A stretch of 64,000 bases of DNA from a virus: the UHGV virus genome UHGV-0200554, one strand, 5' to 3'. Numbering within the stretch: the stretch's first letter is position 1; each line of letters opens with the position of its first letter. The position numbers were made by a program, and so were the translations under genes. Of the stretch, positions 640 to 48,070 are shown one piece after another. The notes beneath the pieces are model-generated. The model did not search any database and had not been told where the DNA came from. It saw only the letters and a list, made by a program, of their open reading frames with translations.

Positions 640-2091
640 CTATTTAACGTTTTCAATCAAATCTATAGTTCTGCCAAAAGATGGCGTATAGTCTTTGTTA
701 CCACCTTCTGTCCTAATCCAGAGCGTATTATACTTATCCCAACCGTTGCTGTCAACCTCTTTTTCAAAACCTGATTCAAGAAACAGGTCAGTAAAGATAA
801 TAACATCCTGAACATCAGACAGATGTTTATCCAGATATTCAAACACACAACCTGCACGAGTACCGAACGTAGACTTGATCTGGTAGTCTGGCATCTGTGC
901 AATATTCTGGTGAGTGTATACCTGAACATCACCAACTTCTGTTGACCAACAGAACATCGTAACTTTAAACTCTTTATACAGGCTGCACAACCCGCTGATT
1001 TCTGAAGTGATACGTTTCAGAGTCCGTGGAGAGATAGAGCCTGATACGTCGAATGCCACCACTATATCAATCGTTTTCTCCTGGTTGCGACCTGGGAGAA
1101 TAACAGACTGGCGATTGTTGATAGCCCCTCTGCTACGCAATGTGTGAGTTAAAGCACCAGAGCGACGGGCCGGACGACGATAAGTCATATCAGCTTTCCG
1201 GTGTGACAACATACGTTGACGAATCACATCCAGATAGTTGATGATAGGCTTATTGCGATTCTTGATCCACTCACGCACCTGTGCCGGACCTTCACCACCT
1301 GCCGCTTTCATAGCAGCTTCCATCATGTCACCAGAGTCCTGCATTGCTGCATCTTTCTCTGCCTGAGTCATTGCTGGTTGGTTGCCTTTTTCGTAGCCCA
1401 TAGCTTCACTGAGGTTGTCAGACTGGCCTTGTCCGTCCCCCATGTGAGTATCTGTGGCTCGTAGACCACCGCCACTAGCTTTACCTGGTTGTTGCTGTTG
1501 CTGTTGTTGTCTTTCCAGGTCTGCATAAACTTTTTCAGTTATCCACCCGTGGTATTTCTTATCACAATAACAATATTCAAGAAATGCAAACGGCTGGCCT
1601 TTTTTCAGCTGTGTGCGAATCCCGTGTGGGAACATTGCACATGGCGGTTCGGCTAAATCTACCATCAGACCAGTATTAATAACGTGGTCAGCGGCCTGAT
1701 TAAACAGGTTGTGATCAGAGAAGGCTTTACCACGGCTGAGGTGATCAGCAATGATGTGACCTATCTCATGGCACAGGAGAAAAGCAACCTCTTTAAGCGT
1801 TTTAGGTGCATAGAAAGCGTCCAGCTGTTCTTTCATCTTATCATCGCACTTAGGCAGAATGATAGCACGGCGTTCCTGGCAAACACCTATGATGAACTCT
1901 GGATTGTAGTAAATCCGCTTATGGTCTGTGGCGATAGTGTCACACCATGTGTGGTTCTCAACAAATTGTAAGCCTGACAGGAGCACACCGTAGAAGCTCA
2001 ATCTTTCCATGAGCCACATGCGAGCACCCTGAAGCATACGTAGAGCTTCTGGTTTCTGTGCTAAAATCAGTTCTGAACTTCTTGCGTCCAC
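640..2091 (-). CDS. vWA-domain protein with HExxH zinc-metallopeptidase-like motif
   Basis: HEIGH motif in N-terminal half; MIDAS-like DVSGS motif (IVVAFDVSGSIS) in C-terminal half; GTG start with GGAGG RBS. Confidence 0.7.
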   Translation of the reverse strand: MDARSSELILAQKPEALRMLQGARMWLMERLSFYGVLLSGLQFVENHTWCDTIATDHKRIYYNPEFIIGVCQERRAIILPKCDDKMKEQLDAFYAPKTLKEVAFLLCHEIGHIIADHLSRGKAFSDHNLFNQAADHVINTGLMVDLAEPPCAMFPHGIRTQLKKGQPFAFLEYCYCDKKYHGWITEKVYADLERQQQQQQQPGKASGGGLRATDTHMGDGQGQSDNLSEAMGYEKGNQPAMTQAEKDAAMQDSGDMMEAAMKAAGGEGPAQVREWIKNRNKPIINYLDVIRQRMLSHRKADMTYRRPARRSGALTHTLRSRGAINNRQSVILPGRNQEKTIDIVVAFDVSGSISPRTLKRITSEISGLCSLYKEFKVTMFCWSTEVGDVQVYTHQNIAQMPDYQIKSTFGTRAGCVFEYLDKHLSDVQDVIIFTDLFLESGFEKEVDSNGWDKYNTLWIRTEGGNKDYTPSFGRTIDLIENVK

Positions 2092-2104
2092 TACGATCCT
2101 CCAA

Positions 2105-2122
2105 AGGGGGCAAAAGCCCCCT
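2105..2122 (-). terminator. GC hairpin (7-bp stem, AAAA loop) between tandem minus-strand genes
   Basis: AGGGGGC-AAAA-GCCCCCT perfect inverted repeat; weak U-tract, so terminator or processing site. Confidence 0.4.
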
Positions 2123-2142
2123 CGTTGTTATTTTCTGCTATC

Positions 2143-3177
2143 TTACACCTTTTTAAAGATGTTTGCAAGCTCTGCCATCGTCATGTTAGTCGTTTTCATG
2201 AGGTCAGTCATCGCCTTTTCCATCACAGGTGTAACTACCATGAAGTTGCCTTTGACAAAACCTTTATCGCGATCAGCCACCAGGATAGATTTAAGGCCGT
2301 CACCCAGACGTTCACCAGTCAGTGCACAACATTTTTTCTGGTACACTTGTTTGAACTGTCCGAATGTCAGATCTACTTTCATGCCTATATCATAGAAGAC
2401 CTGACAGTAGAAAGCGTAAGCCTGAGCAATAGCCACATCTGGTGGTAATGCCTGAGGTAGCGGTTTAGGCTCTTCAGGAGCGTCTGTACGGTCCTCAACA
2501 ACTTCGGCTTGTACTTCTTCAACTTCAGCCGTTTCTTCAACCACAGGCTCACTCATGATGTTCCTGACATGTTTTTCAGCACGTTTGTCCATGAACTCAC
2601 GTAATTCCTGTGCAGGTGTCATAGGTTCTTCCTCCTTAGCTTCAATTTGTTGCAAAAGTGCTTCACCACCCAACAGGCCAAGTTCAGCTTTGTCATCTTC
2701 AGAGCCATATTGGCGCATGAAGTTTTCGAAAGAGTATTCTTCTTTCAAGGCCTCCATACTTTCTTCTGACAGGTGTAGCATCATCTGCTGAACAATTTTA
2801 CGGTCAGTACGGTCTTTAATAAGGACCGCATTCTTCTTATCAACCAGCGAATCCTTGAGTTCATTACACCGTGTTCCGACCACACAGCAGTTATGCAGAG
2901 CATACGCCCCGTCATCGTCGATACGCTCTAACGATGGGTAGAACGGGTTGCCTAAACCGTTCTCGTCAGTGTGCATATCAAAAGGAAGAAGAGTGTAGTC
3001 ACATACACCGTCCCCAAGTAATTTCTTACCGAAGAACAGCCACTCTTCCCACGTCAACGTAAACATGATGCCCCTTTTCTTAGCATTACCTTGTTTACGT
3101 TTATACTTTTTATTCAGCTTCTCCAACTCCCACGGTTGATAGCAGCCCTCCAGATATTGAATGTGTGTCTTAGCCAT
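2143..3177 (-). CDS. hypothetical Cys-rich protein
   Basis: ORF track; 344 aa; Cys/His cluster (GDGVCDY...HNCCVVGTRCNE) suggests metal binding; no confident family. Confidence 0.55.
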   Translation of the reverse strand: MAKTHIQYLEGCYQPWELEKLNKKYKRKQGNAKKRGIMFTLTWEEWLFFGKKLLGDGVCDYTLLPFDMHTDENGLGNPFYPSLERIDDDGAYALHNCCVVGTRCNELKDSLVDKKNAVLIKDRTDRKIVQQMMLHLSEESMEALKEEYSFENFMRQYGSEDDKAELGLLGGEALLQQIEAKEEEPMTPAQELREFMDKRAEKHVRNIMSEPVVEETAEVEEVQAEVVEDRTDAPEEPKPLPQALPPDVAIAQAYAFYCQVFYDIGMKVDLTFGQFKQVYQKKCCALTGERLGDGLKSILVADRDKGFVKGNFMVVTPVMEKAMTDLMKTTNMTMAELANIFKKV

Positions 3178-4761: not shown

Positions 4762-5024
4762 AAAAAGTTGTAAACGTTTATCTGAATGCAGAAGAAGTTA
4801 AAGTTGATGGTAGCCTTTTTGAAGTTGGCGATCTGATGATTATCCACTTCGTAAAAGAGGATAAAGGATACATCTCATTGAACCTGCTGGAGTATGTTCC
4901 TGAAGAGATGATGCCTACAGTGTGTCAGGCTTTGTATGCAGGTGGTGATTCTAAACCTCTGGCAGAGCTGAATATTGGCCCTAAAAATCTGGTCATCTCT
5001 ACAACAGTAGACGTGGGAGAATGA
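4758..5024 (+). CDS. hypothetical protein
   Basis: ORF track; ATGA overlap coupling. Confidence 0.55.
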   Translation: MKKVVNVYLNAEEVKVDGSLFEVGDLMIIHFVKEDKGYISLNLLEYVPEEMMPTVCQALYAGGDSKPLAELNIGPKNLVISTTVDVGE

Positions 5025-5395
5025 CTATGGCACAGTGGAACAAGACGCTGGATTTATCTGACTGGTGGGCAGGACTACCACTTGGGGATGGTACAATCCA
5101 GGTATGGACTGGCAATAATGTCCACAAGTTCGCCAAACGGATAGCCCGAAAAATAGCTGAACTCTACCCACGGCAATTAAACAAAGATTGCCCAGAGTAT
5201 GATTGGGTTCTTGATGATGTGGTTGATCACTTCCTGGCAATTCTCCCACCAGAGGAGTTCAACAAACAGGTTCACGCCTACATCAACGAAGAAACTGATT
5301 TTCTGGTCACACCTATAGAAGATTTCAATTATGCTATGTCTGAGCTTTACGACTGGGCAGACAGGCACAATCTATGGGTGAAAACAACTTTCTAA
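5021..5395 (+). CDS. hypothetical protein
   Basis: ORF track; overlap coupling with upstream gene. Confidence 0.55.
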   Translation: MTMAQWNKTLDLSDWWAGLPLGDGTIQVWTGNNVHKFAKRIARKIAELYPRQLNKDCPEYDWVLDDVVDHFLAILPPEEFNKQVHAYINEETDFLVTPIEDFNYAMSELYDWADRHNLWVKTTF

Positions 5396-14320: not shown

Positions 14321-14984
14321 CTGGAGCAAATATTTCACCTACAGTGACGGTAAACTGTTCTGGGCGTATACCGCAAAAGCCGGAAGAGGCAGGGTTATAC
14401 ATCACGCAGGCGAGGAGGCCACAGGTACAGACACAGATGGCTATAGGGTGATAAGTGTGTCAGGTGTTGGACGTGTTAGTAGGCATAGAATAATTTGGGA
14501 GATGCATTACGGGGAGATACCTGAAGGCCTTGTTGTGCGGCACAAGAACGACATAGCAGGCGATGATAGGATAGAGAACTTAGTCCTAGGAACACAGGGA
14601 GATAATGTACGAGACATGATCTACAGTGACAAATTGAACATTAACAATACCTCAGGGTGTCGAGGTGTATGCTACCATAGGGGTGTAAAAAGATGGATTG
14701 CATCTGCTGGAGACATATATTTAGGATGTTTTAAGACAAAAGAGGATGCAATTACATGCAGAAAGTTATGGGAGGAGGGAAAATTCGTCCCGCAAGAATT
14801 AGATGTTAGAAATACCAGCGGTGTAACAGGGGTGTTCTATGTGCCAAGCTCTGGAAGGTGGAGAGTTAGAGTACAAAGTGGCAAAAAGAGAAAGAGCTAT
14901 GGTAGTTACAACACTTTAGAAGAAGCAAGAGCTGTAAGGGACAGAGTGATGAAAGAGATTGAGGAGTCTAAAGATGGGGAATAA
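14313..14984 (+). CDS. HNH homing endonuclease with two AP2-type DNA-binding domains
   Basis: HNH_3-like N-terminus (GYRVISV...RHRIIWE...HKN...DNRIENL-like), two AP2-like repeats (GVCYHRGVKRWIA..., GVFYVPSSGRWRVRV...). Confidence 0.7.
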   Translation: MVDWSKYFTYSDGKLFWAYTAKAGRGRVIHHAGEEATGTDTDGYRVISVSGVGRVSRHRIIWEMHYGEIPEGLVVRHKNDIAGDDRIENLVLGTQGDNVRDMIYSDKLNINNTSGCRGVCYHRGVKRWIASAGDIYLGCFKTKEDAITCRKLWEEGKFVPQELDVRNTSGVTGVFYVPSSGRWRVRVQSGKKRKSYGSYNTLEEARAVRDRVMKEIEESKDGE

Positions 14985-17900
14985 GTTTATACCCTCTGCG
15001 TATAGTCGTTATGGGGAACCGAACCCAGTTGCAACAAGATACAAAAGCGGAGGCAGTATGGCACGAGACTATCGTGATGAAAAAGAGGTTGAAACTGTAG
15101 AGACTGTTTTAGAAAATACTAAAATTGTCCCTGTTCCACAACAAAATATCGGACTGACGGCTGCACAATATTTCGGTGTGCGATCAGCATTGTCCCAAGA
15201 AGATGGTGTGACAGTCGTTGCAACATATTTCCCATATTACAACCGCTACGGCAATCTATCTGGCTTTAAAAAGCGTGATTGGTCTAAGCCAAAAGAGCAG
15301 AAAGGGCACTGGTCTGTAGTAGGCATTGTTAAGGCCAACAGCCAGTTCTTCGGTCAGAAAATGGTTGGTGAAGGCTCAGACCATCGTAAAATCATTGTCT
15401 GCGAAGGTGAAGGCGATGTTATTGCTGCGTGGCAGACTGAATGGATGATGGTCAGGAAAATAGCTACAGACCCGTCATCAAATAAGAAAGCTAAAGCGTG
15501 GGCACAAAGCGTTCTTGACGGTATTAAAGCCGTGCAGGATGGTGGTTCTGCTAAAGGTTTTCCCACAATTAACGTGGTAGGGCTTAATTGTGGTTGTGCG
15601 AATGCCGTAGACGCTTTTGCCAACAACGAGAAGTTTATTCGTGGCTTTGATGAGATTGTCCTGGCCTTCGATAATGACGCTGCAAATGATGTTGAGAAGC
15701 TAAAACATGTCACCAAAGGTGTTGAAGCCACTCACAATGTTGCAGCTTTCCTGATGGCTGACAACGTTTTCCATGTGCAGTATCCGAGCGAGGTAAATGA
15801 TCCAGAGGGTTACAAAGATATCCGTGATTTGTTCCAGGCTAAAAAGTATGATCAAATTCACGATATGTTCAAAAACCCGATCAAATACGTGCCAGACGCT
15901 GTAGCAGGCCTGAATGATTTCTCAATTGAAGATTTACGTAAAAAATCCACCAATGGTGTTGACATTGGGGCAGAGTTCCCTAAACTCCAGAAAATGTTGA
16001 AAGGTTTGCATAAAGGCACACTGGTCATGTTGACTGGCCCTTCCGGCGGTGGTAAGACTACGGTAGCTAAGAAGATTGAGCACCAGATAGCTAAATACCT
16101 GATGGATCCTACGGTGGCTAAAGCTGATGACTACGACCCCGAAGACAGGTTGTGTATGATTCACCTGGAAGAGGACCCAGAAGAAGCCATCAACTCGCTG
16201 TATGCTAACCAGCTGGGGTATGATATCAAGAATTTCATGGAGGACCCAAGCAAGTATCTGACCGAGCAGGAACACTTTGAAATCCACAAAGCCTGGGTTG
16301 ATGCTGATAAAATCAGAGTATTCCGGCACTTCGGTTCAATACCTGTAAACGACCTGATCACCAAGCTGAAACAGATGGTGTGCTTGTATCATTGTCGTTA
16401 CATCGTACTGGATCATCTGTCAATGGTTATTTCTGGTTTGAATGTAAAAGATGAGCGTAAAGAGCTGGACCTTGCAATGACGCAGCTTGCAGCATTCTGT
16501 AAGCAATTCAATGTGTTCATTTTGGTGATTGCACACTTACGTCGTACAGAGATTATCCCACCGAAGGATAAAGAAGGTAGGGCTTTACCGTTCTGGTATC
16601 CTGTCCGTAAAGAAAACCTTCGTGGTTGTGTTTCTGCGGACACAGAGTTTTTAACCCCGCAGGGGTGGAAACGCATAGATAACTATGCAGAAGGGGATTT
16701 GGTTGCGCAGCACGATGAAAATGGCGTAATGACTTTCGTAACCCCGAAAGCCTACATCAATCTTCCTTGCGAAGAAATGTGGCATGTTTCCAACACTCAC
16801 GTTGTAGACATGTTGTTGAGCGATGAACATCGTGTTGTATATGTGAATGACAGAACGCCAGATGTTTTCCGTACGAAAACCATGTTGGAAGTTGTCTATG
16901 ACCACAACAACAAGCCTTCAGGTATGCGTGGGAAAATACCTGCTACGTTCCTCACAGGGTGCAATGGGACGCTGGGGTTGACTGATGACCAATTACGCCT
17001 ACAGGTTGCTGTAAATGCTGATGGGACAGTTCTTACTGAGTCAACAGGAAGAGTGGCTGTGAGAATCAAAAAAGATCGGAAAAAACAACGTCTCGAGATG
17101 CTGCTGGAGAAAACAAACACCACTTATAGGCGTCTTGATTTGCACGGGGTGCACGAAGGACGCACAGAGTACCAATTTAAAGCACCGTGTGGGTATAAAG
17201 GTGTGACTGGGGAATGGTTTAATCTCAAACAACACGAGTTGGAGATTATCTGTGATGAGGTTATGTATTGGGACGGAGATTCTGTGAACAAAAACAGGGT
17301 GTCCACCATTAACAAACTTGAAGCGGACTTCTTACAGTTTGCCTACAGCGCCTGTGGACATAGAACATCTTTATCCATGAAGGAGAACAACAGTGGCTTT
17401 GGCGGTAGTTACAACTGTAAACCTTTGTACGAGGTAAATGTTTGCAATACTAAGTACATGCATATACGCAAAGGTAGTAATAACAAACCCTCTATTGAAC
17501 GTGTACCTTCCCCAGATGGACGTAAGTATTGCTTTACGTTACCGTCGGGTATGTGGGTGGCGCGCCGCAATGGGCATATTTTTATCACAGGAAATTCGGG
17601 GAGTATGGAACAACTCAGTTGGGTTGTCATAGGGGTAGAAGCAGAAGAGATGCCTGACAGGTCCCGTGGGCGTGTCCGTTTAGTTAGCCTAAAAAACAGG
17701 CCAGCTAAAACCTTGGGTATCGCTGATGTGCTGATTATGAACCCTGAGACTGGTAAATTCTCCGATGCCAGTGACTGGGTGTGGGATAAAGAGACAGGTT
17801 TCTTCCTGAACAAAGATGGGGATATTGTCTGGAGGCCACAAGATATGTTCGACAATGAAGAACATGTTGTTGTGGAAACTCCTGAAGGTAAGGTTACCGC

Positions 17901-18015
17901 CGATGTGAAACCTCAACCAAAATCTGTTGACGCAGAAGGGGAAGAAGATGATGGAGTGGATGATCAGAGTGTAATCCAACAGGAGTTCCCTGAGGATGAA
18001 GATTGTCCGTTCTGA
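14974..18015 (+). CDS. bifunctional DNA primase-helicase (T7 gp4-like), intein-containing
   Basis: TOPRIM motifs (IIVCEGEGD, VLAFDNDAAND), Walker A GPSGGGKTT, helicase motif split by intein; acidic C-terminus ending DEDCPF; ATG 14974 with GAGGAG RBS. Confidence 0.8.
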   Translation: MGNKFIPSAYSRYGEPNPVATRYKSGGSMARDYRDEKEVETVETVLENTKIVPVPQQNIGLTAAQYFGVRSALSQEDGVTVVATYFPYYNRYGNLSGFKKRDWSKPKEQKGHWSVVGIVKANSQFFGQKMVGEGSDHRKIIVCEGEGDVIAAWQTEWMMVRKIATDPSSNKKAKAWAQSVLDGIKAVQDGGSAKGFPTINVVGLNCGCANAVDAFANNEKFIRGFDEIVLAFDNDAANDVEKLKHVTKGVEATHNVAAFLMADNVFHVQYPSEVNDPEGYKDIRDLFQAKKYDQIHDMFKNPIKYVPDAVAGLNDFSIEDLRKKSTNGVDIGAEFPKLQKMLKGLHKGTLVMLTGPSGGGKTTVAKKIEHQIAKYLMDPTVAKADDYDPEDRLCMIHLEEDPEEAINSLYANQLGYDIKNFMEDPSKYLTEQEHFEIHKAWVDADKIRVFRHFGSIPVNDLITKLKQMVCLYHCRYIVLDHLSMVISGLNVKDERKELDLAMTQLAAFCKQFNVFILVIAHLRRTEIIPPKDKEGRALPFWYPVRKENLRGCVSADTEFLTPQGWKRIDNYAEGDLVAQHDENGVMTFVTPKAYINLPCEEMWHVSNTHVVDMLLSDEHRVVYVNDRTPDVFRTKTMLEVVYDHNNKPSGMRGKIPATFLTGCNGTLGLTDDQLRLQVAVNADGTVLTESTGRVAVRIKKDRKKQRLEMLLEKTNTTYRRLDLHGVHEGRTEYQFKAPCGYKGVTGEWFNLKQHELEIICDEVMYWDGDSVNKNRVSTINKLEADFLQFAYSACGHRTSLSMKENNSGFGGSYNCKPLYEVNVCNTKYMHIRKGSNNKPSIERVPSPDGRKYCFTLPSGMWVARRNGHIFITGNSGSMEQLSWVVIGVEAEEMPDRSRGRVRLVSLKNRPAKTLGIADVLIMNPETGKFSDASDWVWDKETGFFLNKDGDIVWRPQDMFDNEEHVVVETPEGKVTADVKPQPKSVDAEGEEDDGVDDQSVIQQEFPEDEDCPF
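16627..17595 (+). other. intein (about 323 aa) inserted in helicase motif of primase-helicase
   Basis: Starts with Cys after ENLRG, ends ...ITGN followed by Ser; removal restores LRG-SGSMEQLS matching the T7 gp4 DLRGSGALRQLS motif; possible degenerate LAGLIDADG-like segments inside. Confidence 0.7.
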
Positions 18016-31738: not shown

Positions 31739-32059
31739 TTTTAGAATTATAAAAGTTTTAGATGACAAGGGGAAATCTGTAATAGATTTTCCCTTATTTA
31801 TCAGATATTTGCAGATATTTGAAAATCATTAGAAACTTAGGTAATTAGGAGCGTACGAAAATGGATTTTTTAAAAGCATAAGCAATCATTTAGCAAATTA
31901 GCCAAATAGATTTTAGCCTATTGCTATTGTGTATGCATGTATTTGCATATGCCTTGCACATATCCCCACACACCTCTTCCCACATTCCCACACAGTTCTC
32001 GGTTGACCCGCCAATCTCCCCTCCACAACTCTCCCAGTAATTTCCTTAAGTACTCGATC

Positions 32060-32160
32060 TGTTTTTCAAAATCGAAATCGGATTCTGAAAATCTCGACAG
32101 CTTTTCTCCTCGGTTCTCGATAGGTTTTTTATTTTCGATTTTGGATTCTGGATCTCGGTC
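32060..32160. repeat. inverted repeats (AAAATCGAAAT / ATTTCGATTTT) in non-coding leader
   Basis: AAAATCGAAATCGGATTCTG and TTTTCGATTTTGGATTCTGG copies about 60 bp apart. Confidence 0.45.
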
Positions 32161-32316
32161 TGGTTCTGGCTAGGCCTGCGCCTGAGGAACGAAAGCACTT
32201 TTTTATTTTTGAAAGTGGATTTTGAATTTCTATATAGAAAAAATTTACCCCCTACCATTTTTGGTAGATAGTCACGGTACGTAATTAGCCTGCTAACTAA
32301 ATTTTAGATAGTTTCA

Positions 32317-32500
32317 TGAGTGATTATCACCGTTACTATAAATTGCCGTAACTATAAATCACCGTGCGTTACTATTTTAATTTCACCATGCAACTATAAA
32401 TCACGGGCCGTTATTATTTATATAGAAAACTATTACTAACCGTGCGTTATTACCTCAATTTGCTTAGGTTACTATTAATCACCGTAAGTAACTATTTTTT
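32317..32500. repeat. iteron-like array (CACCGT...ACTAT(A/T)AAT units, about 8 copies)
   Basis: Repeated ATCACCGT and (T/A)ACTATAAAT-like units at irregular spacing; non-coding. Confidence 0.5.
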
Positions 32501-32859
32501 AAATGATAATCATTCTCAAAATATATTGCGTGCATCCCCGGTGATTGTCTCCCGGCCCCTGGTGCCCCGGCTTGATTATATAATAACAGATCCGGCCCCC
32601 ATGTCAACAGCTTTTTTAGAAAAATATTAGTTACAACATCCTGGCGCCACCTGGCAGGGCCATCATGACCATGATCCGGTCCGGCGCTTGCGCCCTGGTC
32701 CATCCTCCGCACATTAGTTACAGCATTCCAACGACCGATCCCCGATAGTCTGCAACCTGGCGGGGCCGCCTGGTCCACTGGACCGCCTCCCCTGGTCCGG
32801 TGGGGAGTCCGGCTTGCAATTCAAAATGTGATCTGTGTCAACCTTTCACCATGTAGCTA

Positions 32860-32888
32860 TTGATCAGGTTACGGCCTAGTGTATTCTA
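32860..32888 (+). promoter_or_regulatory. promoter-like element (TTGATC-17-ATTCTA) with conserved GTATTCTATAG(G/C)TGAA start region
   Basis: Paralogous to element at 38496; followed by purine-rich leader. Confidence 0.4.
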
Positions 32889-32955
32889 TAGGTGAAGGGA
32901 AACAAAGGGGAAACGGAAAGCAAAACACCAGGCCGCAAGGCAGGAGGAAAATAAA

Positions 32956-42849: not shown

Positions 42850-43146
42850 ATGTTTATCCCTGCAAACGGTTTATTCTTCTTTGACGGTATGATCGACAAT
42901 GCCGCCGTAATGGTCGAGATTGCCAACAAAAACGGCGGCCAGGTGATGGCATTCCGTGATGACCATGACCATGATCGATGGTTAGAGGTCGAGATCCAAA
43001 AAGTGGACGAAAAAAGCTATCTAGTGATCTACCGCCTCTTTGAAGACGGTCGCCAGGAGGCAGGGGATCAGGCCATCTTCCCGCGCTACATGGTCCAGGG
43101 TGCGATCATCGCTTTCGTGAACGATGTTTTCCCTGTTGAAGAATAA
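42850..43146 (+). CDS. hypothetical protein
   Basis: ORF track; ATG 42850 with AAAGGAG RBS. Confidence 0.5.
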   Translation: MFIPANGLFFFDGMIDNAAVMVEIANKNGGQVMAFRDDHDHDRWLEVEIQKVDEKSYLVIYRLFEDGRQEAGDQAIFPRYMVQGAIIAFVNDVFPVEE

Positions 43147-43353
43147 CCGACTATACTCGAAAGCTGAAAATCAAAAAATAGCCCATCTAATCGCCACACA
43201 GGCGGGATAAACCTGGGGAGGCCTTGCAAGTGCATAGCCTCCTTTTTCATGCCCTTAAAACGCTTCCTGTTGCGTTTCCTGCGATACGGTCCAGGCCGTG
43301 ACGGCGGTCCGGTCCGGTGTAGGGTGTTCAAATGTTGTAACTAAAAATAATCC

Positions 43354-43381
43354 TTGCACCGATTCACAAATAGGCTATAAT
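43354..43381 (+). promoter_or_regulatory. sigma70-like promoter TTGCAC-16-TATAAT
   Basis: TATAAT 43376-43381; GAAAGAGGTAATTAC downstream. Confidence 0.5.
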
Positions 43382-43425
43382 AAAAATGAAAGAGGTAATT
43401 ACCTCACATAATAAGGGGCAAAATC

Positions 43426-43683
43426 ATGAAAGGCTGGATTAAAAAGGTGACCGAAAAACGTTTTAACGCCATTTGGGATCTTATTGAAAAGGAAGAAGGT
43501 GCCTCAAGCCGCTACCTCAATAATCTTGAATTTCATTACGTGGAAGCGATGAATGCAGAACATGACCACAAAGGCGGCGCGGATGATTTTGCAAAAAGGT
43601 ACGGTTTTAATAATGCCAACGAGATGATCGAGGCGGTTGTACTCCAGGCAGAAGAAGACTACGCAGAAAGGGCGCTTGGTTAA
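43426..43683 (+). CDS. hypothetical protein
   Basis: ORF track. Confidence 0.5.
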   Translation: MKGWIKKVTEKRFNAIWDLIEKEEGASSRYLNNLEFHYVEAMNAEHDHKGGADDFAKRYGFNNANEMIEAVVLQAEEDYAERALG

Positions 43684-43726
43684 TACACGGGCCGAAAGGC
43701 CCACCACACAAAGAGGAGTAAAAATT

Positions 43727-43921
43727 ATGGCACTTAAAAAATTAACTGAAAAAACTCGTTGGGATATGATCGACGGGGAAGTCTATATTTTCGCCCGTAA
43801 ACCTGGCGATCAAAAATGGGTAAAAGCGTTCACTTGTCACCCTGCTGTTATTGACCTCATTAAAAGTAAAGGCCTACGTGAAGCAGTGGCACGTAGTCTA
43901 TTAATCCCTTGCAAAGAATAA
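43727..43921 (+). CDS. hypothetical protein
   Basis: ORF track 43637..43921 trimmed to ATG 43727 (AAGAGGAG RBS). Confidence 0.5.
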   Translation: MALKKLTEKTRWDMIDGEVYIFARKPGDQKWVKAFTCHPAVIDLIKSKGLREAVARSLLIPCKE

Positions 43922-43943
43922 TATAACTGACGAAATAATAAGA

Positions 43944-43966
43944 GGCCGCAAATAAGCGGCCTTTTT
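43944..43966 (+). terminator. rho-independent terminator (GGCCGCAAATAAGCGGCC + T5), duplicate of 40426
   Basis: Identical 18-nt hairpin followed by TTTTT; last element of the small-gene array. Confidence 0.75.
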
Positions 43967-44630
43967 GTTGTCTGTAGTATAGTGAATCCGGTATTCAAAA
44001 CAGCGGATCATTCCGCGAACGCTATGCGTGATGTGTGCATAAAATAAAATGCCTATAAATTAACCACACCACAAAAAAGCTGTATGTGCATACATAGTTT
44101 TTAAGTTTTTTCAGTTTTCAGCTGTCAAATGTGGGGCATTTTGTGAAGTATCTCACACTTTTCGGCTGATGCACATTTTATATAGCTATGTCAACAACTA
44201 TAAATCTTTATAAAACAGTAAGTTACAAAGTCCATTTTTTGAAAAATCGGGTATAACTATAGGCGCGAAATTCTATTTTTCACGTAGCGTCACGATAAGA
44301 TGTATCTGATAGGTATGTTTTAATTATGCAATATTAATGCATAACCAACATGTGATAAATATTCTCAACAACCCGGCAGATGTATTAAATATGGTGACTA
44401 TTCCACCCCACATTATTTCAGACGGCAACTATTCCGATGTGTGATTAATATACTTTCAGGCGGTGATTATTCTGTATCTCAATAATCTATATAATATAAT
44501 ATTAGTAATATAATTAGATTATGAGATACAAGAAAACATCTAAAATAGTAAAATTACAATTAATGAAAATATATAAATTGCATAAAATAAAATAAGACAA
44601 ATAACAATTTGCGAATGCAATGATCACAAT

Positions 44631-45051
44631 ATGCAACGATAACATGGCGCGACCGGAGGGAGCGACATAATAACGCTGAGTGACAATAACACCCCCGTGT
44701 TATTATCCAGCATTATTATCTCGCTAATTTATGATTATCTCATAAATTAACATGTAATAATCCTCAGCGTTATTATGTCCTCCAATAACAATAAAAATTG
44801 TTATGGTAACGCTGAGTTATTACTATGTTAATAAAAGGGCATAAAGCCCGGTACTATGTACCATTAAATAATCTAAAACGATTACGTTTTCTCAGCGTTA
44901 TTGTGTCAAATGTTATGATAACAGTATATAATTATCTTGCTAACTTTCAGTATACATATTCCGCGTAGCGTCATGTGGAGCGTGTAGTAAACCTGTAGCA
45001 AGATAAGAATAACGCTGAGGTATTGTACCGTATGCAACGATAACATGGCGC
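44631..45051. repeat. 20-bp direct repeat ATGCAACGATAACATGGCGC (2 copies: 44631-44650, 45032-45051)
   Basis: Exact copies about 400 bp apart in AT-rich non-coding DNA. Confidence 0.7.
44669..45019. repeat. 12-bp motif AATAACGCTGAG, 5 copies in both orientations
   Basis: Copies at 44669, 44763 (inverted), 44807, 44891 (inverted), 45008. Confidence 0.7.
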
Positions 45052-45572
45052 AACTATAACAGGCCTAAAGAGTAAGATAAACAATAGTTTATGTGTATAA
45101 TCGGCGGGGCCTCCTGGCTGCGCTGTGTGAAACTATCATGTATGGAAACAGTCCAGGATGTTATGATTTCAGCATGGGATTGTGTGTTTTTGAATTGTGT
45201 ACGGGTAAACTGTGTGGGGTAAGTATAGGGGAAGTATAGGGGAAGTATAGGGGAAGTATAGGGGAAGTATGCCTAACAAATTTCGTTCTTTTTGTCAACA
45301 ATTTTTCTATGAAAGTGGTCCGACCAGTTATAAGATGCATCTACGGAGCATGTTATGTAGCTGGTATGGTAGTGTGCCAGTGCAATATGATGCCCGGTCA
45401 TAGCTTGTGTGGTGTACCTGTTACACCAGTAAATAGAATTAATAGCAGGCTAACTACTACAATGATTAATCTTTTAGTGCTGTAATAAACCGCAATTATT
45501 CTCCTTTCGATTGTTTTCGTTTCCTTTCGTTTCTTATCGTTTGAGCTGTGTTTTATTCCGCGTAGCGTCATG
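44959..45572. repeat. 17-bp direct repeat TTCCGCGTAGCGTCATG (2 copies: 44959-44975, 45556-45572)
   Basis: Exact copies; degenerate relatives near 44003 and 44281. Confidence 0.65.
45216..45270. repeat. tandem repeat, 11-bp unit GGGGAAGTATA, about 5 copies
   Basis: GGGGTAAGTATAGGGGAAGTATAGGGGAAGTATAGGGGAAGTATAGGGGAAGTAT. Confidence 0.85.
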
Positions 45573-45578
45573 CTGAGC

Positions 45579-45618
45579 TGTGGATAAGTCTGTGGATAAC
45601 CCTGCCTCCTGTGGATAA
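45579..45618. promoter_or_regulatory. cluster of three DnaA boxes (TGTGGATAA = complement of TTATCCACA)
   Basis: Perfect 9-mers at 45579-45587, 45591-45599, 45610-45618, same orientation. Confidence 0.65.
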
Positions 45619-46481
45619 CTGGCCTGCTATGCCTGCTGTGTGGTACTATTGAACTACTGTACAAATGATCATAAGTGCGTATAATCGGTGTTACGTATGA
45701 TGAACAATACGAAGTAATAATTATTCCCACATGAGAAGGCTTATCATTTACTTAAATGTTGCTGTGGAAAACTGTAACGCATGTTATTATTCAACCCCAC
45801 ACAATGAGGGCGTGAACAGTCCCCCCCTATAATCACTGTGTGCAACTATTAATCACTGTGAGTAACTACCATGCAATAACTAGGCCAATGGTCGCAAGGC
45901 CCCGGCTATCAATTGCGTAAACAGCCTCGATATTTGAGAATCATTCGCATTATGAGAAGGAGTCGCGTTTCGCCTGCCTAATACCTCAGATGTGAGTCTG
46001 GGTGTATCGGCCCCGCACTACCCCTGCTTCAGGACAGGACCTGCGGTCCGGTGACAACAACTTGTTGTGCACCATTGAGGATATTTGCCCCGGTTTGTAT
46101 GAATACCTCTTCAGGCTGTGTACCTCCCCGTAGGGGGGGTATGGTGAGAGGTAGTACGAATAAAAAAAAAATGAAGCCCTCTTCAGGCCTGTGATATTTG
46201 TGTGGCTGATATTTGTGGGGAATCCAGTATTTACGGGACTCCTGGACAGGGCGGGGAGGTATACACAAAGGAGGTATTATGTTAAAGATATGTTAAAATA
46301 TGTGGTGCTCTTTAGGCATTATTCTTCAATGAAATCAAGTGCTTAGGCTATGTGTGGGTATTTTCTGTGAATAATTGGCATGTTAATCGGATCAAAGAGG
46401 ATTAAAGAAGGGAAATGATTTGACTCTTCATGCCACTTGTGGTATATTTTCGATACTGGTAAAGGGGGTTCGGAGGTCAGG

Positions 46482-46856
46482 ATGTTTGAGTTCAAAGCTG
46501 ATGCTCAGGAGTTCTACAACAAAGTTGCTAAGCCTGTTGTGGAGTCTGTTCAGGAACACCCTGCAAGCAGACCTACTTCTGTGGGGATAAAAGGTGTTAG
46601 CAAGTACTACAGAGGTAAACATGTGTATTACAGGGCTTACATCTGGGTAACACGCCACACTGTGAACAAGCAGTTGATCAAAACGTTTAAAACTCTGGAA
46701 GAAGCTGTAGCTCAAAGGCAGGAATGGGAACAGGTGAAGGATATTTTGGACGGGAAAGTAGCGATGGTATTACCTTTTGAATGGGATATGGTGTATGCTT
46801 CTAAATACTGGGAAGTTTATCATGGAATGGCTCAGGAGCAGGATGAAGATTATTAA
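46482..46856 (+). CDS. AP2-domain DNA-binding protein (standalone)
   Basis: ORF track 46437..46856 trimmed to ATG 46482; GVSKYYRGKHVYYRAYIWV...TLEEAVAQRQEW resembles the AP2 repeats of the HNH-AP2 endonuclease at 14313. Confidence 0.45.
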   Translation: MFEFKADAQEFYNKVAKPVVESVQEHPASRPTSVGIKGVSKYYRGKHVYYRAYIWVTRHTVNKQLIKTFKTLEEAVAQRQEWEQVKDILDGKVAMVLPFEWDMVYASKYWEVYHGMAQEQDEDY

Positions 46857-47371
46857 TGGACCGTGAAGGTCCGGCATGTAATGCCAGTTTATGGAATGTA
46901 ATTTGTAGGCATGGAAGCTATTATTTTGCTTAGCTCTGTAATGATTAGCAGGCTGTGTGCTACAACCTTGTTGTACCTGAATCCTTAGGTTTCTAATGAT
47001 TAGTTTGCTAAGTATTTATATGTGCCTAACCCCCTACCCCCGGTTCTAGTCTCCCCAACAACGCTGGTACTTAAACTCTACCGTTATTGTGCCTTACTGC
47101 CCATATTACATCGCAGTTGGCTGGTCACTATAACCGCTCCCGCTCTCCAACCTCGACAAGCTCGTGCGATACTCCATTCATTCGGATGTTCACGCTGTTC
47201 ACTCAGTCGATATTCCCCTATCTCCTTCAATCCGAAGAGAGAGAAACCCAGAATCGTATTCTGGAAAAGAGAGAGAAGATCTAAATTATAGCAGGAGATG
47301 AGAGGAATTGCAATATGGAGGATACCTACCAGAATTGGTAGGCATATGTGGACAGCACTTATTGACAAAAA

Positions 47372-47599
47372 CTACTCCGTATCGATATCTACCTCTGTGC
47401 CTTCCTCAGGTACAGATAACATAGCCATCTGTAGAGCTTCCTCCCAGTTAGTGCGCTCAGCCTGAGCCACCAACTCATCCGGGTCTTTACCCAATGCTTC
47501 AGCTAACCGAGATACATAGAGTACACCAGGGAGAAGTTCAGGATCAAATTCAAGATAGAGAATCCCATCCCCATCTTCTGTGAAAAGCTCAAGTCGCAT
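47372..47599 (-). CDS. small acidic protein
   Basis: ORF track; first gene of minus-strand array. Confidence 0.5.
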   Translation of the reverse strand: MRLELFTEDGDGILYLEFDPELLPGVLYVSRLAEALGKDPDELVAQAERTNWEEALQMAMLSVPEEGTEVDIDTE

Positions 47600-47854
47600 A
47601 CTGGCTCCTTATGTTGACTTCATACAGGTTGTACGATGCCTAAAGAGTGAAATTACTTTGTCTCTTCAGGCAACAGAGCTTGCGATTGTTGTGGATGTGT
47701 GGGCAGAGAAGCTACATAGTAGTGAATAGCTCCACGACATACTACAACAGTATGCATATCATTGTGACCGCTCCAGCTACACACAATATAGCACTTATGA
47801 TTGCTAATGAGAACAGGCAGTAGCTGATAGCTGTGTCTGTAATATCACTTACCC

Positions 47855-48070
47855 TCATACGCTTCTCCTTGTTGCTCTTGCTACTTCAAAATAGTCTACA
47901 TATCTTGATTCTTGCAGGATACGATAGCCTTCCCTATCTGCGTCTTCGATTGTGTGGAAGCGATCTCCAAGCTCCATACGCTCACCAGATTGTAAAACAA
48001 TTATCAGCTTGTACATAGACCCTCCTTCATAATGCAAACTGATAATAGCACAGACAGGAGAAGGAGTCAA
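47855..48070 (-). CDS. hypothetical protein
   Basis: ORF track. Confidence 0.45.
   Translation of the reverse strand: MTPSPVCAIISLHYEGGSMYKLIIVLQSGERMELGDRFHTIEDADREGYRILQESRYVDYFEVARATRRSV

Follow-up and report, generated by a model that had tools for sequence, protein, structure and literature searches.

In the genome paper of phage rV5, a stretch of the genome is marked as an unexplained 'non-coding' box (PMC3606486). Its counterpart in an uncultivated virus is the subject of this work: UHGV virus genome UHGV-0200554, of which 64,000 nucleotides on one strand were analysed (this whole stretch is referred to here as the window), carries at 43922-46481 a gene-free zone that is dense in repeats and contains three consensus DnaA boxes. 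For several phages related to it the genome ends have been placed. The record of phage Gotham annotates 459-bp repeats at both ends, while Klebsiella phage KPP-1 (Mydovirus) has a 514-bp direct terminal repeat (DTR) at 116316-116829, determined by coverage and with PhageTerm (PMC9862379). For BME3 and Schickermooser, DTRs of 342 bp and 328 bp, respectively, are given.

Two better studied phages serve as more distant points of reference. At the T7 concatemer junction, arrays of short repeats adjoin the DTR, a palindrome is located just inside the right end and a promoter is found upstream of the right-end repeat. Chung et al. are said to have described, in 1990, a hairpin intermediate at this junction. 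Duplication of a short terminal repeat at packaging by way of a hairpin intermediate is known as the T7-type mechanism (PMC5923468, PMC4925675). In T5, the terminal repeat holds DnaA boxes in pairs 3 bp apart near the injection-stop signal (Davison, 10.1101/866236). A previous reading of the window, made from the letters and open reading frames (ORFs) alone and called the sequence-only reading below, had mentioned that T5-type injection-stop regions are reported to carry both repeats and DnaA boxes, which is correct according to the same source (10.1101/866236).

A predicted terminal-repeat junction in the gene-free zone

By its sequence, the window phage is an uncultivated relative of the rV5-like (Vequintavirinae) phages. 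Its genes include rIIA/rIIB, a Dda-like helicase, a gp4-like primase-helicase, NrdD and a prohead-protease-like protein, and its DNA is only distantly similar to that of known phages. A megablast search of the region against phages returned zero matches, and relatives surfaced by distant blastn alone, where two to four short stretches of the region, at conserved spacing, are about 75% identical to more than 100 Vequintavirus records. A gene-free zone of 1.8-3 kb occupies the same position, with plus- and minus-strand gene clusters converging on it, in nomo, Murica, magaca, KPP-1 and BME3. Closer relatives make up a clade marked by a 124-aa protein (at least 33 protein clusters, on contigs of 110-140 kb), and comparisons within this clade refer to the window and nine further members (L004-L006, L070, L099 and L105-L108).

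In the window the zone comprises 2560 bp without a credible gene, as the last plus-strand gene ends at 43921 and the next starts at 46482. The longest ORFs inside it (110, 79 and 59 aa) are broken by indels in relatives, and the ORFs of the zone matched no PHROG family. GC content is 0.32 at 44001-45000 versus about 0.43 in the whole window and falls to a minimum of 0.15 at 44500-44599. These values bear out the sequence-only reading in its description of an AT-rich stretch of about 2.4 kb lacking a convincing ORF; its repeat coordinates are likewise all as it gave them, and the repeats are well above chance in abundance.

Three explanations had been offered for the zone: an origin of replication, a DNA-injection pause or packaging site, and a collapsed terminal-repeat junction. 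Based on homology to relatives with mapped ends, the last of these, including its role as a packaging site, is the best supported. We estimate a probability of about 0.62 that the zone represents the terminal-repeat (concatemer) junction of a linear genome packaged in the T7 manner, collapsed to one internal copy by metagenome assembly. When the nomo zone was compared by megablast with all phage records, many independent Vequintavirus records started or stopped at two points 459 bp apart. Gotham and EdH4 carry exact 459-bp terminal repeats, both of which map to nomo 4809-5267 (L002), and the 514-bp DTR of KPP-1 falls in the homologous gene-free zone.

From homology to the Gotham/EdH4 repeat and to the KPP-1 DTR boundary, the DTR of the window phage is predicted at 45275-45978 (about 704 bp, a single copy in the collapsed assembly), with the predicted physical ends at 45274|45275 and 45978|45979. 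The right boundary of this prediction is well supported. Both blastn and MAFFT alignments to nomo stop at window 45978|45979 (...GTTTCGCCTGCC|TAATACC), corresponding to nomo 5267/5268, and a GATATTTG box on the plus strand (45929-45936) starts exactly 50 nt before it. A GATATTT box begins at this same distance of 50 nt from the right boundary in nomo/Gotham, in KPP-1 and in the window, the ends of the former two having been determined independently.

The predicted left boundary is moderately supported. The boundary contexts of nomo and, in reverse complement, of KPP-1 both align best at 45255-45313, pointing to 45274|45275 (...AAGTATGCCT|AACAAATTTCG...). A TTGTCAA box on the plus strand (45292-45298), 18 nt inside this boundary, is invariant in nine clade members, and the same box is found 18-19 nt inside the left boundary in the window, nomo/Gotham and KPP-1. 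Conservation within the clade starts abruptly at 45274|45275, right after a hypervariable array of 11-bp units. In addition, the 7-mer TGCCTAA is present at both predicted DTR boundaries, as is the case for a shared 7-mer among 0.16% of random position pairs (chance 0.0016). A 7-mer common to both cut sites was not found by eye in Vequintavirus or KPP-1 and appears in the window clade only.

Several observations weigh against a terminal-repeat junction at these coordinates. The ends of the window phage are predictions from homology. Taken alone, the alignment at the left boundary is weak, with the nomo context equalled by 70 of 300 shuffles and the KPP-1 context by 5 of 300, and MAFFT favoured a left boundary near 45449. 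In L105 and L106, one of the two boundary copies of TGCCTAA has 1-2 changed nucleotides. The contig ends of related assemblies are scattered over 44509-46133 and define no single terminus. Moreover, one paper calls a Vequintavirus headful-packaged from PhageTerm (PMC13211470), a call to which we give less weight than to the exact repeats in curated records. The roles proposed for the flanking repeats lean on the T7 analogy. The left end of the predicted DTR is uncertain, possibly by about 170 bp; the DnaA boxes fall inside the predicted repeat whichever left boundary (45275 or about 45449) holds.

Contig ends were also considered as termini in their own right (44509, 44616, 45110, 45266 and 46133) and were rejected as assembly breaks in a repeat-rich zone. 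The start of contig L005, equivalent to window 44509, is not repeated at the other end of that contig, and the end of L004 falls within a repeated mini-element. A related contig of 133.5 kb ends 9 nt from the predicted left boundary, which counts in favour of that boundary. The DTR boundaries of BME3 were unusable for mapping due to a segment of about 0.8 kb which occurs three times near the ends of the record (PP239276; L008/L009), one copy containing Ns, and the deposited BME3 ends look mis-assembled. Among the database records, about 19 entries labelled 'Campylobacter phage' (e.g. MG065644 and MG065690) show 92-94% identity to Vequintavirus phages of E. coli across the zone, and their host labels are doubtful.

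If the zone is a junction of this kind, terminase would cut at both DTR boundaries, with the cuts set at fixed distances from TTGTCAA (18 nt) and GATATTTG (50 nt), and the DTR would be duplicated at packaging so as to give each virion DNA a copy at both ends. By analogy with T7, the AT-rich tract, the three-way element with its flanking direct repeats, the iterons and the 11-bp array would then come to lie just inside the right genome end and the GATATTTG, CTCTTCAGG and TATGTTAAA boxes just inside the left one. The elements to the left and right of the DTR might, again as in T7, act as cis-acting signals for recognition and processing of the junction. The region itself would be an ordinary kind of feature. 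Nevertheless, the 'non-coding' box of rV5-like phages would be explained as a terminal-repeat zone with concrete cut sites and boxes at fixed distances from them, which would help to set correct genome starts for a widely used group of E. coli phages and for many uncultivated relatives.

DnaA boxes in the predicted terminal repeat

Three consensus DnaA boxes, TGTGGATAA (TTATCCACA on the minus strand), are located at 45579-45587, 45591-45599 and 45610-45618, all on the minus strand and separated by spacers of 3 and 10 bp. The three perfect boxes within 40 bp that the sequence-only reading had reported (45579, 45591 and 45610) are therefore real. Two of the three have the TGTGGATAAC form, which is that of R1 and R4 in oriC. 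The proposal that such 9-mers might be as dense elsewhere by chance did not hold: TGTGGATAA occurs five times in the 64-kb window versus 0.82 expected, and none of 100 shuffles reached five.

Boxes 2 and 3 show no variation among the ten clade members. Box 1 is perfect in eight, reads TGTGTATAA in L105, which is still consensus, and is degenerate in L107. Variable columns amount to 2 of 27 in the boxes versus 10 of 13 in the spacers (Fisher p = 1.8e-5). A protein footprint would leave such a pattern, and by this comparison the boxes are under purifying selection as boxes. No DnaA boxes were found in the homologous zones of nomo, Murica, magaca, KPP-1 and BME3, and on the sequence comparison it is the window clade that acquired three high-affinity DnaA boxes inside the predicted repeat. 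For an rV5-like terminal repeat such a DnaA module is new, although as a modest, lineage-specific addition to a known feature. As conserved DnaA boxes in a predicted terminal repeat, it would be a second, independent case beside T5, for which the role of DnaA on incoming or replicating phage DNA has been a question since the 1980s. Sister lineages have the same architecture without the boxes, which makes the question testable by comparison.

The arrangement itself is more widespread. The array TGTGGATAA-N3-TGTGGATAA-N10-TGTGGATAA was found in 19 viral contigs from IMG/VR and in 67 metagenome contigs (L020-L103), mostly unrelated to the window and often as part of longer arrays with a 31-bp period. 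Judged from this distribution, the array is a generic DnaA-binding module, and its scatter over many uncultivated viral contigs hints at a widespread DnaA device. A generalisation that DnaA arrays sit in terminal repeats was considered and rejected: in two large unrelated viral contigs the array is located about 200-250 nt from an end, and the end is repeated in neither.

At the positions where the window clade has its DnaA boxes, the terminal zones of KPP-1 (L007 4700-5470) and BME3 show several AATGAT(A/T)ATCATT palindromes, whose sequence agrees with the Fur-box consensus in its core. It may be, then, that the host factor for which sites are placed near the ends varies from lineage to lineage.

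Our preferred guess on the boxes is that, shortly after entry, host DnaA would load at either end of the genome, some 300-360 bp inwards. Bound DnaA would then either organise or anchor the ends, or help to open the neighbouring T-rich DNA for phage replication. More broadly, unrelated virulent phages, T5-like siphoviruses on the one hand and the rV5-like myovirus clade on the other, could have arrived convergently at clusters of high-affinity DnaA boxes in their terminal repeats, serving end anchoring or protection, control of DNA entry, or replication starting from the ends; this remains a speculative generalisation that we hold to be doubtful.

Alternatively, as in a model proposed for T5, membrane-associated DnaA could bind the terminal repeat as it enters and pause or anchor DNA entry, or protect the end until early functions are made. 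In favour of this, each predicted end would have a copy of the boxes at a distance of about 300-360 bp, the box sequences are under selection, and the 3-bp spacing of boxes 1 and 2 is that of the box pairs in the terminal repeats of T5-like phages. Against such entry control, the T5 model is an untested preprint proposal, the window boxes are outside the arms of inverted repeats, unlike those of T5, and the predicted repeat is gene-free and about 0.7 kb long versus a T5 repeat of about 10 kb with pre-early genes. Sister lineages also do without the boxes. There is, furthermore, no homology to T5: distant blastn gave Vequintavirus-type records only. Taken together, we regard entry control of the T5 kind as quite improbable.

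Perhaps, instead, the boxes are there for transcription. A sigma-70 promoter-like site (TGTACA-16-TATAAT, 45658-45685, plus strand) is located 40 bp downstream of box 3 and scores 10/12, and the sequence between the boxes and its -35 element is conserved. DnaA could activate or repress this promoter, from which transcription would cross the repeat boundary and enter the conserved block and then the gene for the 124-aa protein. The -10 hexamer, however, drifts in relatives (TAAAAT, TATAAC, TTTAAT) and has disappeared from L108, with the boxes remaining perfect, and its loss in several members makes promoter control an unlikely reason for the conservation of the boxes. Promoter-like sites across the region are also no commoner than in shuffles (13 versus 11.1 +/- 3.7), and the 124-aa gene has a strong, conserved promoter of its own. 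Transcriptional control through the boxes is therefore very improbable in our view.

The replication origin and a second repeat-dense stretch

The zone could also be, or additionally contain, the replication origin of the phage, which would be compatible with its being a terminal-repeat junction. In one variant, DnaA on the three boxes would open adjacent T-rich or AT-rich DNA, after which the phage primase-helicase would load; in another, a phage initiator would bind iterons beside the AT-rich tract and the hairpin element before the primase-helicase loads. The three consensus boxes are in one orientation and have the T-rich strand to their left; in oriC, the unwinding element has this polarity with respect to box R1. 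The region further contains a tract of 15% GC, iteron-like repeats and strongly folding inverted repeats, the iteron pair of the DTR belongs to the same family as an internal array at 32.3 kb, and the maximum of the cumulative GC skew is nearby.

Nevertheless, the DnaA boxes are missing in Vequintavirus, KPP-1 and BME3, all of which retain the zone. The T-rich flank to the left of the boxes is swapped for unrelated sequence in L006 and L106, which argues against a conserved unwinding element. This flank is only about 64% A+T, no conserved AT-rich unwinding element was found beside the boxes, and the most AT-rich tract is about 1 kb away from them. The phage encodes its own gp4-like primase-helicase and Dda-like helicase. 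The cumulative GC skew peaks at about 47000 in the window, exactly at the switch of the coding strand, and the rV5 authors came to the same conclusion on skew for rV5 (PMC3606486). A fuller iteron array adjoining replication genes (32332-32498) is a better origin candidate. An origin in the zone thus seems unlikely to us; of the explanations offered by the sequence-only reading, the origin goes unsupported, as the boxes are lineage-specific and the skew turns at the strand switch, while the collapsed junction or packaging site finds support in the relatives.

This better candidate is part of a second gene-free, repeat-dense stretch at 31740-32950. The array at 32332-32498 consists of four 31-nt units plus half-units, and is accompanied by three 38-nt repeats (32050-32224), a tandem CAGATATTTG x2 at 31802, CCCACAC repeats within 31740-32950 and a Fur-box-like palindrome AATGATAATCATT at about 32499. 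The iteron motif of this array, ATCACYGTRNGTAACTAT (32358, 32478), is found elsewhere in the window only as the pair in the DTR (45832, 45852). In nomo, an equivalent internal gap of about 1 kb holds motifs related to the DTR iterons of nomo. The shared motif suggests that one phage protein probably binds both the internal array and the DTR iterons, and the stretch at 31740-32950 would be a candidate replication origin or control locus at least as good as the zone at 43922-46481.

Elements on either side of the predicted repeat

To the left of the predicted DTR, a module at 44630-45054 is bounded by the direct-repeat pair TATGCAACGATAACATGGCGC (44630, 45031) and contains five alternately oriented arms of the AATAACGCTGAG type. 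Four of these are exact copies of AATAACGCTGAG (44669 plus, 44763 minus, 44891 minus, 45008 plus) versus 0.21 expected when one mismatch is allowed. Of the five copies originally counted, four are thus exact and occur in both orientations, whereas the fifth is GGTAACGCTGAG at 44805, with two mismatches. The other repeats named at the time stand: the exact 20-mers are the TATGCAACGATAACATGGCGC copies, which extend to a 21-mer pair, the 17-mers form a perfect inverted pair (44664-44680 and 44763-44779), and the 11-bp tandem repeat is GGGGAAGTATA x4.9 at 45217-45270. Direct repeats of 21-24 bp flanking inverted repeats are a layout which is also present in nomo, L006 and KPP-1.

The core of the module is a three-way inverted-repeat element (44655-44790), in which a 17-bp perfect outer stem encloses a hairpin with a CCCC loop and a second hairpin. 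Folded as single-stranded DNA it reaches -32.2 kcal/mol (z = -9.9). The same three-way architecture is seen with other stem sequences in L006 (z = -8.3), nomo (z = -7.8) and KPP-1 (z = -6.4), and the outer arms in these three are perfect, 17-21 bp long and of differing sequence. On these folds, the element keeps its shape but not its sequence across four lineages.

Between this module and the DTR are found iteron-like repeats TGTGTGAAACTATC and ATGTATGGAAACAGTCC (of the TGTGGAAACAG type; 45124-45154, plus strand), which number two copies in the window, three in L004 and about six in nomo at this position. They are followed by the plus-strand tandem array of GGGGAAGTATA, which adjoins the predicted left DTR boundary and in place of which relatives have AGTATGCCT(AA) units. 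Inside the DTR, a tandem pair of 20-bp iterons TAATCACTGTGnGnAACTAn is located at 45830-45868 on the plus strand, and nomo has its own, different tandem iteron pair at the same DTR position.

To the right of the DTR, a conserved non-coding block (46079-46481, plus strand) contains GATATTTG three times (46080, 46193, 46208), CTCTTCAGG twice and TATGTTAAA twice, motifs which are common to Vequintavirus. Over 46100-46499 it is 83-94% identical to L006 and L010, versus 53-73% for the adjacent gene. A structured RNA in the conserved block at 46160-46330 is unsupported (-7.3 kcal/mol, two covarying pairs).

Small insertions add to the variability of the zone. The 19-mer TATTCCGCGTAGCGTCATG occurs twice (44957, 45554), each time within an insertion of about 32 nt (44951-44984 and 45541-45572) that is missing from relatives, and a degenerate third copy is found at 44276-44300. 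On either side of the second insertion is a 9-bp direct repeat, TGAGCTGTG, reminiscent of a target-site duplication, and the inserted sequence may be a very small element that moves or is copied. Other insertions, about 45-55 nt long and able to form hairpins (e.g. GGGGTGGAC..GTCCACCTGGCGTAGCCAGCGAAA, GGGCATAAAGCCC...), are located at sites that differ between clade members: L004 1-75 and about 975-1030, L005 about 250-300, L006 about 5230-5280, and window 44834-44870. In sequence they resemble miniature mobile elements, one of which caused the assembly break of L004.

Neighbouring gene and further features

The left edge of the zone is a bidirectional hairpin terminator (43940-43965), detected in a terminator scan and kept in L006, that closes the plus-strand gene cluster. 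It is followed by a conserved block at 44166-44300 (plus strand; 75% identity to Vequintavirus, 99% to L006) with a promoter-like element, ATGTCAACAACTATAAATCTTTATAAA, whose action as a promoter is inferred only, and then by the most AT-rich tract of the zone (44440-44620, GC 0.15 at 44500-44599). Two further sequences, TGTGTATAAT and TGCGTATAAT, were tried as extended -10 promoters and rejected, as they mismatch TGnTATAAT. An Rfam scan of 43000-48000 gave chance-level matches only, and no tRNA genes were found within the 64-kb window.

The sole gene in the zone, at its right edge (46482-46856, plus strand), encodes the 124-aa clade-specific protein and is served by a strong, conserved promoter, TTGACT-17-TATATT (46420-46448, plus strand). 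Homologues (P0001-P0033) are 119-168 aa long, bar one fragment of 84 aa. The protein had no sequence match in Pfam, PHROG or PDB, and no homologue was found in the Vequintavirus, KPP-1 or BME3 loci examined. Its AlphaFold model has a pLDDT of 44, too low for a fold search. The conserved core has a predicted beta-beta-beta-alpha order, which only hints at a DNA-binding domain, and is accompanied by an insertion of variable length made of IKGVS/RGVS-like repeats.

Beyond this gene, a perfect sigma-70 promoter (TTGCAA-17-TATAAT, 47313->47285, minus strand) points into an ORF-free block. Positions 47000-47299 show an identity of 93-99% to L006 and L010, both of the clade, and of about 75% to Vequintavirus, and the consensus fold of 46990-47285 has 58 pairs, of which 16 are kept via double changes between two lineages. 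The block would be a candidate non-coding RNA of about 290 nt, with covariation that is thin and drawn from two lineages.

Elsewhere in the window, two adjacent genes for HNH endonucleases are located at 640-3177 on the minus strand. In the 1018-aa primase-helicase ORF (14959-18015, plus strand), residues 554-881 additionally match a PhoH-like ATPase family, and the ORF may be a fusion or contain an inserted element.

Comparison with known systems

Bacterial clusters of DnaA boxes, such as the oriC R boxes and datA-type titration sites, share with the window perfect TTATCCACA 9-mers, close spacing and a single orientation. The setting is different, as the window belongs to a virulent phage with its own replisome genes and has no conserved unwinding element beside the boxes. 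Also unlike the bacterial clusters, the same box-3-box-10-box array recurs in many unrelated viral and metagenomic contigs.

T5 resembles the window in having consensus boxes in a terminal repeat, same-orientation pairs 3 bp apart and surroundings rich in repeats and palindromes. Its boxes, however, number seven to eight and are located within large inverted repeats (IRC/IRD) of a gene-bearing repeat of about 10 kb, while the window has three boxes in a predicted repeat of about 0.7 kb without genes. Two-step DNA transfer is a T5 trait that is not known for rV5-like phages.

With T7, the window has in common a short gene-free DTR, here predicted, adjoining arrays of short repeats, a palindrome which would lie inside the right end and a promoter-like site that would be upstream of the right-end repeat. 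T7 differs in being an unrelated podovirus with its own RNA polymerase and no DnaA boxes, and there is no sequence similarity between the two; the role suggested here for the three-way element is inferred.

KPP-1 comes closer. Its DTR is likewise located in a gene-free zone, with TTGTCAA 18 nt and GATATTT 50 nt inside the boundaries and a long perfect inverted repeat beside the DTR. It is unlike the window in having AATGAT(A/T)ATCATT palindromes instead of DnaA boxes, and similarity is limited to the boundary contexts.

The closest match is with Vequintavirus (rV5, Gotham, EdH4, nomo). The predicted repeat of the window is about 704 bp versus 459 bp, the three DnaA boxes are found in the window only, the window clade has the extra 124-aa gene, repeat and iteron sequences are lineage-specific, and the ends of the window phage are predicted. 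In both, however, the zone is located between two convergent gene clusters and patches of it are 75% identical. Both also share one order of elements: a promoter-like block, an AT-rich tract, an inverted repeat flanked by direct repeats, iterons, a DTR with a tandem iteron pair, and GATATTTG/CTCTTCAGG boxes.

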